A stretch of DNA of 51,464 nucleotides from a virus (Duplodnaviria; Heunggongvirae; Uroviricota; Caudoviricetes). A program made the position numbers. This document shows positions 27,001 through 30,000 of this stretch, piece by piece (position 1 is the stretch's first letter; every line of letters starts with the position of its first letter). The stretch lies in the IMG/VR virus record IMGVR_UViG_646311923_000011. One strand, given 5' to 3'.

Positions 27001-30000
27001 TACCGGGGCAGGTGGCGTTGATCCGCAGGCGCTTACGACCAGCGGCAACATCAGCGCGCAGAGTTTCATTTTCAGCTCTCGCATCGGCTAATTCCCTCGA
27101 GTATTTTGCATCGAGCGCAGCAACATCGCGCTGGCGCACCTGCATATCAGTAATAGTTGCGTTTGCCAGCTCCAGCTCTCTGGCTTTTTTATCGCGCTGC
27201 GCTTTGTAGGTGATGGCGTTATCGCGGTAATGATTCAGCCCCAGACTAAGCACACCACAGGCTACCAGCAGGACAATAATCACCACACACAGAACACGGT
27301 TCATATCACCACCAACGGATTGCCCAGACCAGAACAGCAATGGCCACAATACGAATGGCAAATGCCATTGCCCGAATAAGTTCAGCACTCATCTTTTTAA
27401 AGTTCACGATTTCAGCGCAATGACCAGTTTTGCCAGCCCATACAGCATCGGAGACACAGCAATACCAACAGCCACCCACTTAATAGCAAAAGCCAGCGCT
27501 CTGCTGATGTCATCAGTCACTGTCACCCCAGCAGCCCCGACGAAGACAACATCACCCAGGCGAGGGACAGAAAAAGAGCAACCAGCATTAGTGAAAATGA
27601 AATACCGACAATCACACACAGGACCTTTGCCGGCGTTATGAGTTTGTCTGACATAGCTACCCCTTAATTGCCACAATTAACTGGGATACTACCCATAAAA
27701 AAGGGATGCTCCAGACCAGCAAAAATTTCCAGTTTGGTAATTGACTAATCATGAGTCGCAACTCCCTAATCAGTTTGCTAAAATCAATCAAGGCAGCCTC
27801 CCATAGCTTACTGCCATAAAAACAAAACCCCGCTTGCTGCCAACAAACGGGGTTTTTACTTTTATTCACTTACGTTTCGCCAGTTCGCAGGATTTCATGT
27901 TATCCGCCCGCGTGGCCATGCCTTATTTTTCAGCAAAATATTCTGCTTATCTGTCGATACCCCAGCACGCCAGCGCGCTCTCCTGGTCACGACGGGATAC
28001 CTGACCGTAGCAGTTGTTTGAACGAATACGGCAATCTCTGCCACCGTCCTTAATCCACCAGCGAATCGCCTCACATGCTCCCCTGCGATCACCAGCATTA
28101 ATTCGTCTGTAAAACGTCGACGGGAAACACTTACCGGGACCAATGTTGTACGGACAGAATGACGCGATCCCCGCTTTCTGGGGTTCGGTCAATGGCACTT
28201 TGATGTTTTTCTCCACCCATGCCAGCGCCTTATCACGCTCAATGGCGTTAACCTGGTCGCATTTCTCCTTCGACAACTTCATGCCCGGGACGACAGGTTT
28301 ACCATCCACCAGAATGGCACCGCGACAGATGGTCCAGATACCCGCGCCATCACGGTATGCCGTGGTGTGGTTACCTTCCTTTTCATCCAGAAACTGGTCG
28401 AGAATGTCAGGCGCAGGCGCACCAGCGGCAATCAGCGCCAGAACGGCAGCCGACAGGCCGTATTTGATTTTGGTGTTCATGGATATTTATCAGGATTTAT
28501 CGGCAACAGATAACGAGCCAGCTTATATACGTCCTTTAAGATAAGTCAGTCCTGGATGAAACCAGTAAGCCGGCACTTTTTTAAAGGGCGGATTATCAAA
28601 ATCACGAAGAAGAGCCTCCCGCACAACTGCATCCTTGTCCGCACCACTGGCCAGCGCTTCAATCTCAGCAGCTATCTGCAGATATCCCATGCAACGACCA
28701 ATGCACTTCATCAGCCCCTGCTTTTTATTGTTCTTCAGGTAATCAATGGCAAATTCAATGAGCTCCTCACTATGCTGGTGCGATGGCGGTGTTACTTTTC
28801 CATTTTCTGAGATGGTTATTTTCCCAGCATCACCGGATACAACAAAGGATGGCCGGTTACACTCCCATTCCAGGTCACTGAAATTATCATTATGAATACT
28901 GAAACACTCTGCGAGATTTCTGCTCATCACTTTCCGGCAATAATCGTAAAACGCAGCAAACTGCTCATCGCGGCGTTTTTTTTCAGGCTGCTGAAGATGC
29001 TCTTTCAACCATGAAGCGCAGCTTAGATTCGCCGCGCGATCAGAAATAGCTTCTTTCATTTCGTCTGCTGCAAGCACCTCATTTTTTGTTGGGGTGCTTT
29101 TTTTCAATTCAGCGATATAGCACTCCAGTTTTTCAATACGCGATTCAACATCATCTTTTTCTGACCGCAGTGTTGACGGCGGCATCTTCAGAGAACAAGT
29201 AATTCTTCCCGGTAGCTTTCCTTTGTAGGTTATCAATACATCCTGCGCATCTAAAATTACGGGGCGCTTTTCCGGTGACGGTTCATCCCCTTCGCATAAC
29301 CCGGCAACAATATCCATGAAAAACTGCTTCGCCTGTTTTTTCGCCTCAGCTTCGTAGAACTCCAGCGTGGCACCTTCAGTACGGTCAAGACTAATCGCCA
29401 CATGTGGCAACAACAACGACGGATGCCCGCCAATTTCAAGTGCCACAGTAACAGCAATCTTATCCGGGTAATTATTTATCTCTTTAACAACCAGTTCGTA
29501 TTTTTTCTTCATCGCTTTAGTCTCCCCGCGCCGTCTTACGGCGGTCCTCCCTGATTTTGAAATACAGGTTAGTCAGATACGTCAGCAGGCCAAACAGCAG
29601 ACTCCCCAGTACACCTATTGCCACCCACTGGGACGGAGAGACTTTGTCCAGCAACTGCAGTAGCCAGTATCCCGTCCCCACCGCTGACGTGGTGTATGAC
29701 ACACCTGTTGTGATTTTTTCCATCCGATGTATGTCTCCGTCACCGCCGACAGAAAATGAAAGTAAAGGAAAACAAAAAGCCGCCAGTGTCACCCACTGAC
29801 GGCCAACGCCGGGAGCCGTGATTATGGCATTCAGGCTCTGCTAAAAATGCCAGATAACATTCCGACCAACCCCTGATTCAGGTTATAAATGACACAATAT
29901 CTTGACAACATCCGTCACTGTCTGTCAGAAAATGTACTGCCAAATATAAGTATCATGTGAAGTACATCTACCCGTTTTAGCCAGCGTCCTTCAGAGTGGG

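Follow-up and report, generated by a model that had tools for sequence, protein, structure and literature searches.

Experimental data for the YdfR (DUF1327) family of phage proteins are available for a single member only, YdfR of Escherichia coli K-12 (PMC13232886). It was recovered in a bacterial two-hybrid (BACTH) screen and gave signals with residues 1-597 of RNase E (Rne); a library clone of YdfR residues 1-72 already sufficed when the RNase E constructs included the catalytic N-terminal half (PMC13232886). Furthermore, Strep-YdfR co-elutes Rne1-598-FLAG from lysates, and DNase-resistant nucleic acid co-purifies with Strep-YdfR (PMC13232886). Here we describe a relative of this protein, encoded by an open reading frame (ORF) of 329 codons at positions 28523..29512 of IMG/VR virus record IMGVR_UViG_646311923_000011 (Caudoviricetes), a stretch of 51,464 nucleotides that we analyzed as a whole and refer to as the window. 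The window matches the chromosome of E. coli O103:H2 str. 12009 at 100% identity and covers a lambdoid prophage there. The original prediction, made from the sequence alone, had treated the ORF as an unexplained gene wedged between the genes of the pinholin S and the endolysin R. According to our analysis, it is almost certainly a long, two-domain member of the YdfR/DUF1327 family (phrog_1085) and a soluble, dispensable accessory gene.

The YdfR slot between holin and endolysin

The original prediction recognized no motif in the 329-aa protein, but database comparison placed it firmly. Pfam DUF1327 (PF07041) covers aa 1-100, which align with positions 1-88 of its 93-position profile (132.2 bits, cut-off 25; E 8.3e-39), all 296 positions of the phrog_1085 profile match aa 1-329 (E 1.6e-180), and NCBI names the protein 'YdfR family protein'. 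It shares 96% identity with the representative of a cluster of 648 members, and exactly the same protein is present on 723 contigs. K-12 YdfR aligns with aa 1-74 at 41% identity over 74 aa (E 1e-17). The location is that of the family as well: in the window, K-12 Qin, BP-4795 and other E. coli genomes, the gene follows a class II holin gene and precedes a lysozyme gene within a lambdoid prophage. What sets the window protein apart is its size, since the YdfR family is described as single-domain proteins of about 100-115 aa, while the 329-aa protein comprises about 230 extra residues including a conserved C-terminal module (C-module). Scans against NCBIfam yielded noise matches only (HpnC and CdaM, at 11-14 bits against cut-offs > 200). 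A literature search for 'DUF1327' returned one paper, which mentions the domain in passing, and a paper on the regions flanking Stx genes contains no discussion of the slot between S and R.

The coordinates and spacings of the original prediction were correct, as was its description of an intact ORF with its own ribosome binding site; we add that the minus strand carries it. Read on the gene strand, the junction between S and the ORF is GGGGAGAC-TAA-AGCG-ATG. The S stop codon (29519-29517) is followed by a 4-nt spacer and the ORF start at 29512, and the Shine-Dalgarno (SD) sequence lies within the 3' end of S. At its other end, the ORF stops with TAA at 28525-28523, 42 nt before the R start at 28480, and the total separation of S and R amounts to 1036 nt. 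The 42-nt R leader contains no recognizable SD sequence.

That S and R are normally adjacent had been the premise for regarding the gene as out of place. We compared an artificial S+R query lacking the middle gene with a spread sample of sequenced phage records. S and R were adjacent in 29 of the 41 full-coverage matches, with a span of 744-745 nt, as in Stx2a/933W-like phages such as PA28. The other 12 carry an insert and span 1046 to 1573 nt; spans of about 1140 nt correspond to a YdfR of 112-114 aa in Stx1a, Stx2c and BP-4795-like phages. In 3 further records, S and R were too distant for joining. Adjacency thus holds for roughly two thirds of the cassettes, but a YdfR-type insert is found in the remaining third and in K-12 Qin, too. 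Some part of the gene occurs in 2389 of 5426 complete E. coli genomes (44%), at least 80% of it in 491 of 5426 (9%), and many prophages of enterohaemorrhagic E. coli carry a YdfR-type gene. Since many equivalent S-R-Rz cassettes lack it, the long YdfR gene is not part of the core lysis machinery. Family and arrangement were already known; the long form sits in a known polymorphic slot, the configuration is common and catalogued, and the arrangement of the window is not unusual. The gene therefore proved to be a standard and recurrent component of this cassette type, as the original prediction had allowed for, but not a functionally characterized one.

The occupants of the slot fall into N-only forms of 103-114 aa, C-only forms of 185-213 aa and N+C forms of 287-333 aa. 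According to a comparison of the junctions, the gene after S, whichever it is, begins 3-4 nt past the S stop and relies on one and the same SD sequence embedded in S. In PA28 this gene is R, in BP-4795 and K-12 it is the short ydfR, in O157 the C-only gene and in the window the long gene. In K-12 Qin, essQ is followed after 4 nt by ydfR and then by rrrQ. In cassettes with an occupied slot, R is preceded by a conserved leader (...AAATATCC-ATG-AAC-ACC...) without a recognizable SD sequence. BP-4795 has the same R leader as the window, and O157 and K-12 have related ones. The N-terminal allele of R differs accordingly, with MNTKIKYG behind a filled slot and MSRKFRYG in PA28. The K-12 ydfR frame reads through the R leader and overlaps the rrrQ start, which suggests that the K-12 tail arose by deletion.

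RefSeq/PGAP labels the gene as a 336-nt (112-codon) partial pseudogene with 'missing C-terminus', in strain 12009 and in every other long-form genome that we fetched (our loci L012, L014 and L015, plus strain A25, locus L013). An untranslated pseudogene had also been considered in the original prediction. We rejected this reading for the window allele, the ORF being intact and its dN/dS below 1. Intact alleles of 329 aa (L012) and 296 aa (L014, L015) are present in other genomes, and A25 carries the sole genuine frameshift among the long genes checked. The dN/dS values (Nei-Gojobori) range from 0.29 to 0.52 for the whole gene and from 0.18 to 0.30 for the C-module. These values indicate purifying selection on the gene, which is strongest on the unnamed C-module. 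The pseudogene label is an annotation artefact, presumably derived from a naming rule built on the 112-aa form. Owing to this label, a constrained coding stretch of about 650 nt, the C-module, lacks annotation in 12009, L012, L014 and L015, which hides this module from pangenome and proteome studies. A separate observation concerns A25 (1501-2849 of its locus), where the long ydfR with its frameshift (182 aa and a remnant of 134 aa) is followed by a separate 103-aa DUF1327 gene, i.e., by a tandem family member.

Domain architecture and ancestry of the long form

The N-domain is connected to the C-module by a linker and a helical middle part, and a variable insert lies within the latter (Table 1). 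AlphaFold2 (AF2) models reached a mean pLDDT of 49.8 with 18 sequences and of 61.3 with 20 more diverse sequences. Residues 73-120 and 163-215 stayed below 50, while the core of the C-module, residues 221-290, was modeled with block-mean pLDDT values of 67-89. The C-module is characterized by the conserved motifs H-x-H, GRCMGxLQxAAEIE, DNPPFK and W..PG..YLK. The columns that are invariant across the family include G272, R273, L278, Q279, A281, P309, K311, W317, P320 and Y324, and H247 is nearly invariant. Among the conserved residues of the protein, C73, H245/H247 and C274 are candidate metal ligands. The module also occurs on its own, as a 185-aa form in the same slot of O157. With 9 Cys residues, the 329-aa protein is relatively Cys-rich, and with 45% GC, against 54% in S and R, its gene has a composition typical of morons. 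Neither a transmembrane segment nor a signal peptide was found in the protein, as the original prediction had stated: the maximum Kyte-Doolittle 19-residue mean (KD19) is 1.09, compared to 1.74 for the SAR (signal-arrest-release) segment of R and 1.83 for S.

Remote homology searches gave few hints. A C-module profile recovered 72 proteins among 5.8 billion, with no Pfam domain except for one DUF1327 fragment and no informative fusions; all named proteins among these 72 belong to Escherichia, Shigella or Salmonella. The same profile found no match in the PDB. Foldseek comparison with BFVD gave nothing at E<=1e-3, only weak matches to ERF and uncharacterized proteins, and the best PDB match had an E of about 0.1. 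The weak matches to ERF and to the region of the double-stranded RNA-binding domain of Dicer, together with the predicted beta-beta-beta-alpha topology, provide at most a lead toward nucleic acid binding. Since the N-domain and the C-core are both of beta-beta-beta-alpha type in the models, an internal duplication was also considered and rejected (hhalign probability < 1%).

Among 1.84 billion representative proteins, an exhaustive scan yielded only 75 relatives. The most distant ones (26-36% identity) retain the full N+C layout, and one of them is collinear over aa 20-329 (27% identity, E 5e-28). These distant relatives, from Salmonella Gifsy-like prophages (P0144, P0145, P0149 and P0165), share the N+C architecture and the C-module motifs with the window protein, but carry extra Cys clusters in the C-module. 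Like the window gene, they belong to the late operon and lie beside the lysis cassette. However, they precede the holin: they lie between Q/HicAB and a holin of the PF16080 type, which is followed by lysozyme and Rz, whereas the window gene is located between holin and endolysin. On one metagenomic contig, a relative lies two genes upstream of an S21-type holin. Among genome contigs, only 3 loci were detected, all from Escherichia or Shigella, and a scan of viral contigs with P0144 gave no match. As observations on the Salmonella Gifsy-like loci (L008-L011) in their own right, an opposite-strand HicA/HicB pair lies between Q and the long YdfR homolog in 4 of 4 cases, and in L008 a DUF4406 gene overlaps the start of the homolog by 4 nt.

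Because the Salmonella Gifsy-like relatives are also of the N+C type and stand beside a different holin, the long form is the probable ancestor, from which the short 'YdfR' proteins probably arose by truncation. What is conserved is the association with the stretch of the late operon from Q to the lysis genes rather than with the S-R junction as such, given that relatives lie between Q and another holin or upstream of the holin. Consequently, the K-12 YdfR that gave the family its name is probably a truncated remnant, and experiments on it may miss the main activity of the family, as this activity may reside in the better conserved C-module. The residual value of the locus lies in a long form that is probably ancestral, in a constrained C-module without a name and in intact genes that are systematically mislabelled as pseudogenes.

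Possible functions of the long form

It is reasonable to assume that the Q-dependent late transcript serves the 329-aa gene together with the lysis genes, because this gene lies in the same-strand gene order, shares the SD junction and showed no separate promoter-like site when scanned with a simple consensus. To this extent we follow the original prediction, which had stated co-transcription as given. One could then envision the following course of events. The gene would be transcribed within the Q-dependent late operon and translated from the SD sequence embedded in the end of S, so that the protein would accumulate in the cytoplasm alongside the lysis proteins. Its N-terminal DUF1327 domain might bind RNA and/or the N-terminal, catalytic half of RNase E, while the more conserved C-module might supply a second activity, as a binding or effector domain. 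The outcome would be an altered RNA turnover late in the lytic cycle. Of the functions considered, this one is best supported, since the segment of K-12 YdfR that interacts is the part homologous to the window protein. For the window protein, such a mechanism is possible, though we would rather doubt it than expect it. A long YdfR accessory gene that acts in this way is overall our best explanation of the locus, and we put it forward as a tentative one. If the RNase E link were true for the long form, it would provide a temperate-phage example of targeting the host RNA-decay machinery.

One might go further and speculate that long YdfR proteins are RNase E-directed effectors of temperate phages, with DUF1327 as the domain that targets the catalytic half of RNase E, or RNA bound to it, and with the C-module as a new effector or regulatory domain. 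They would reprogram RNA decay minutes before lysis, for example through stabilization of the late transcript, which is very long. The short YdfR proteins encoded by K-12 and by many Stx phages would then be remnants that keep the targeting domain only. We consider this extended scenario quite unlikely.

Several points weigh against an RNase E mechanism. First, the YdfR that was tested against RNase E is a short relative with 41% identity to the window protein, and its overexpression in K-12 altered few transcripts and did not impair growth (PMC13232886). Second, the RNase E data stem from two-hybrid assays and from co-elution out of lysates without nuclease treatment (PMC13232886), and the contact between YdfR and RNase E may therefore be bridged by RNA. 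Third, C-only forms without the N-domain fill the same slot; thus the function for which the family is selected need not depend on RNase E. Fourth, the Pfam, PDB and fold searches revealed no relative of known function, in sequence or structure, for either the N-domain or the C-module. Finally, we infer the late co-transcription from gene order and a simple promoter scan. No YdfR is known to affect the activity of RNase E.

Alternatively, the protein could be a cytoplasmic regulator of lysis timing, which binds the cytoplasmic tail of the pinholin, the SAR endolysin or the mRNA of the latter and thereby tunes the lysis trigger, in a way comparable to RIII of T4. Its gene is tied to holins in two genera and two holin families (PF04971 in E. 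coli, PF16080 in the Salmonella type), translational coupling links it to the end of S, and the shared SD-less leader of R alleles behind inserts suggests that S, YdfR and R are inherited together as a module. However, about two thirds of the sampled S21/R21-type cassettes lack the gene and presumably lyse normally, and the slot accepts any of the N-only, C-only and N+C forms. That the 329-aa protein has no membrane segment and that K-12 tolerates ydfR overexpression without a growth defect speaks against such a regulator as well. The ydfR gene is said to have scored in an envelope-integrity screen (PMC13232886), but this Keio phenotype could be a polar effect on rrrQ, and the main text of the screen paper cited there does not appear to mention ydfR. 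Consequently, we regard a role in lysis timing as unlikely.

The protein might also be cargo without a role inside the cell, made shortly before lysis in order to be released and directed at host tissue, mucus or competitors outside, like Stx and NanS-p from the same Q-to-S stretch. It has no export signal, and lysis would therefore be its sole exit. Its gene lies in the classical moron zone of the late operon beside a NanS-p-like esterase; the GC content and the number of Cys residues would fit such cargo, too. In contrast, the searches revealed no similarity to any enzyme, toxin or adhesin, K-12 and many commensal and non-pathogenic genomes carry the gene, and the N-domain relative from K-12 binds an intracellular target. 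A released factor is thus very unlikely in our view.

A role in defence, counter-defence or superinfection exclusion, which the original prediction had also listed, found hardly any support. The extreme mosaicism of the family, its fast turnover, its narrow taxonomic range and the moron-like composition would be compatible with such a moron, and a HicAB module adjoins the gene in the Salmonella-type loci. However, PADLOC-DB gave a single match at chance level (Avs2, 11.8 bits, E 0.0087, over a helical stretch), and the Pfam and NCBIfam scans detected no nuclease, NTPase or sensor domain. Moreover, there is no promoter-like site for expression in the lysogen, and the end of the lytic program would be poor timing for counter-defence. 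We therefore assign little probability to this role.

Finally, the gene could act mainly in cis, by uncoupling R translation from S and thus lowering or delaying endolysin synthesis, or be a selfish remnant without function in trans, given that R loses the S-embedded SD sequence to the insert and sits behind an SD-less leader and that truncated or frameshifted versions are frequent (short forms in K-12 and BP-4795, the frameshift in A25); but a dN/dS clearly below 1, especially in the C-module, an architecture kept between Escherichia and Salmonella at 27% identity and invariant motifs make this highly improbable. We thus return to the long YdfR accessory gene with a possible RNase E- or RNA-directed N-domain as the explanation to be compared with known systems.

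Surrounding region and comparison with known systems

The neighbours of the gene are those of a lambdoid lysis region (Table 1), and the assignment of S to the pinholin type and of R to the SAR endolysin type by the original prediction was borne out by homology. The window holin is 78% identical to K-12 EssQ. Its allele lacks the Met pair of the S71/S68 dual start and has a single Met instead (...IHR-MEKITT), while other holin alleles, including K-12 essQ, comprise 71 aa. The holin start type (29517-29792, minus strand) does not track with the presence of a ydfR insert. R matches the phage 21 SAR endolysin structures 3hde/3hdf (E about 1e-16) and RrrD (4zpu). Its N-terminus (MNTKIKYGLSAAVLALIAAGAPAP) is Gly/Ala-rich and weakly hydrophobic, which resembles a SAR segment. 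In addition, the stretch EGNHTTAYRDGAGIWT of R has the spacing E-x8-D-x5-T. The Q21-like antiterminator also matches PF06530 Phage_antitermQ (E 1.2e-7) and the Q21 structure 6p18 (E 4e-4). The block of S, ydfR and R is bracketed by two terminator-like hairpins; in lambdoid late transcription, Q-modified polymerase would read through such terminators.

Table 1. Features of the long YdfR-family gene and of the lysis region in the window
Feature	Position	Strand	Description
Rz spanin gene	26810..27304	-	Pfam PF03245, E 1.3e-49; RefSeq 'lysis protein'
Rz1-like lipoprotein ORF	26899-27084	-	Embedded in Rz; from ORF list
Terminator-like hairpin (candidate)	27824..27856	-	15-bp stem, directly downstream of R; consensus scan
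R, phage 21-type (SAR) endolysin	27947..28480	-	177 aa; Pfam PF00959 Phage_lysozyme
R spacer/leader	28481..28522	-	42 nt, ...CCTGATAAATATCC-ATG; conserved 3' of YdfR-type inserts
Long-form YdfR-family gene	28523..29512	-	ATG-initiated ORF, 329 codons plus stop; 37.1 kDa, pI 6.1, soluble
C-terminal module	28526..28858	-	aa 219-329; orphan domain, three short strands and three helices (predicted)
Linker and helical middle	28898..29287	-	Linker aa 76-120 (low-confidence or disordered) and helical middle aa 121-205; from alignments
Variable insert	28988-29098	-	aa 139-175; absent from 287/296-aa alleles
N-domain (DUF1327)	29288..29512	-	aa 1-75; predicted beta-beta-beta-long alpha-helix; AF2 block-mean pLDDT 73-94
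S, class II (phage 21-type) holin	29517..29723	-	68 aa; Pfam PF04971 'Bacteriophage P21 holin S', E 3.5e-32; RefSeq 'class II holin family protein'
Shine-Dalgarno sequence GGGGAGA	29521..29527	-	Inside 3' end of S; serves any gene after S (junction comparison)
Terminator-like hairpin (candidate)	29778..29804	-	Just upstream of S; consensus scan
Q21-like late antiterminator (DUF1133)	34863..35417	-	About 5.4 kb upstream; Pfam PF06576, E 1e-104

Other parts of the window deserve a brief description. The gap between R and Rz (27389-27946, minus strand) contains several very small ORFs at the place where 933W-like phages carry an ant gene. Two small ORFs with strongly hydrophobic segments and without a Pfam match are located at 27523-27654 (43 aa, MSDKLITPAKVLCVIVGISFSLMLVALFLSLAWVMLSSSGLLG) and 27657-27869 (70 aa) and could encode small membrane proteins within the lysis region. 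A gene for a NanS-p-like sialate O-acetylesterase (SASA and DUF6645 domains, 30016-31865, minus strand) is frameshifted according to RefSeq, and a 573-aa ORF (30016-31737) remains open. Downstream of Q and a DNA methyltransferase gene follows a cluster of three tRNAs (32944-33193, minus strand), namely Arg-TCT, Arg-TCG and one with a CAT anticodon that ARAGORN classifies as Met and RefSeq as Ile. Downstream of this cluster, at the usual stx place of Stx phages, are a TerB-domain gene (32344-32775, minus strand) and a DUF3927 gene (32003-32175, minus strand), and an Rfam match to the small RNA (sRNA) STnc100 (104 bits) lies just downstream. The same substitution of stx by TerB and DUF3927 genes is known from another strain (PMC9413875). 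In the early region of the prophage, adjoining Rfam matches at 40062-40250 (minus strand) to the C4 antisense RNA (82 bits) and the Hfq-binding sRNA isrK (64 bits) represent regulatory RNAs of the P1/P7 c4 type. Furthermore, the ALIL pseudoknot, a frameshift element of the IS3 family of insertion sequences, was found twice with identical scores, at 45209-45325 (minus strand) and 47600-47716 (plus strand), about 2.3 kb apart; the two matches, in opposite orientation, indicate two insertion sequence copies or a composite element in the early region.

How the long YdfR protein relates to described systems depends on which property is compared. With respect to lysis, a counterpart is T4 RIII, a small soluble cytoplasmic antiholin cofactor that is genetically tied to holin function. 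However, RIII and the YdfR family share no homology, and YdfR genes are optional in otherwise equivalent cassettes. We know of no interaction between a YdfR and a holin. With respect to RNA decay, phage-encoded modulators of RNase E are T4 Srd, phiKZ Dip and T7 gp0.7. Srd reportedly targets the N-terminal catalytic half of RNase E, as does K-12 YdfR. In contrast to YdfR, which belongs to a temperate phage and is encoded at the lysis end of the late operon, Srd, Dip and gp0.7 are proteins of virulent phages that are produced in the early or middle stage of infection. Profile searches of the PDB and fold searches revealed no homology of the window protein to a known RNase E modulator (Dip, Srd), with Srd not being compared directly. 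K-12 YdfR (b1555, Qin prophage) shares the homologous N-domain, the slot and the 4-nt spacing (essQ-ydfR-rrrQ) with the window gene, but its 103 aa lack the linker, the helical region and the C-module. The closest match is thus provided by the phrog_1085 and NCBI entries of 287-333 aa named 'YdfR family protein', from which the window protein differs in nothing essential; its 37-aa variable insert sets it apart from the 287- and 296-aa alleles.

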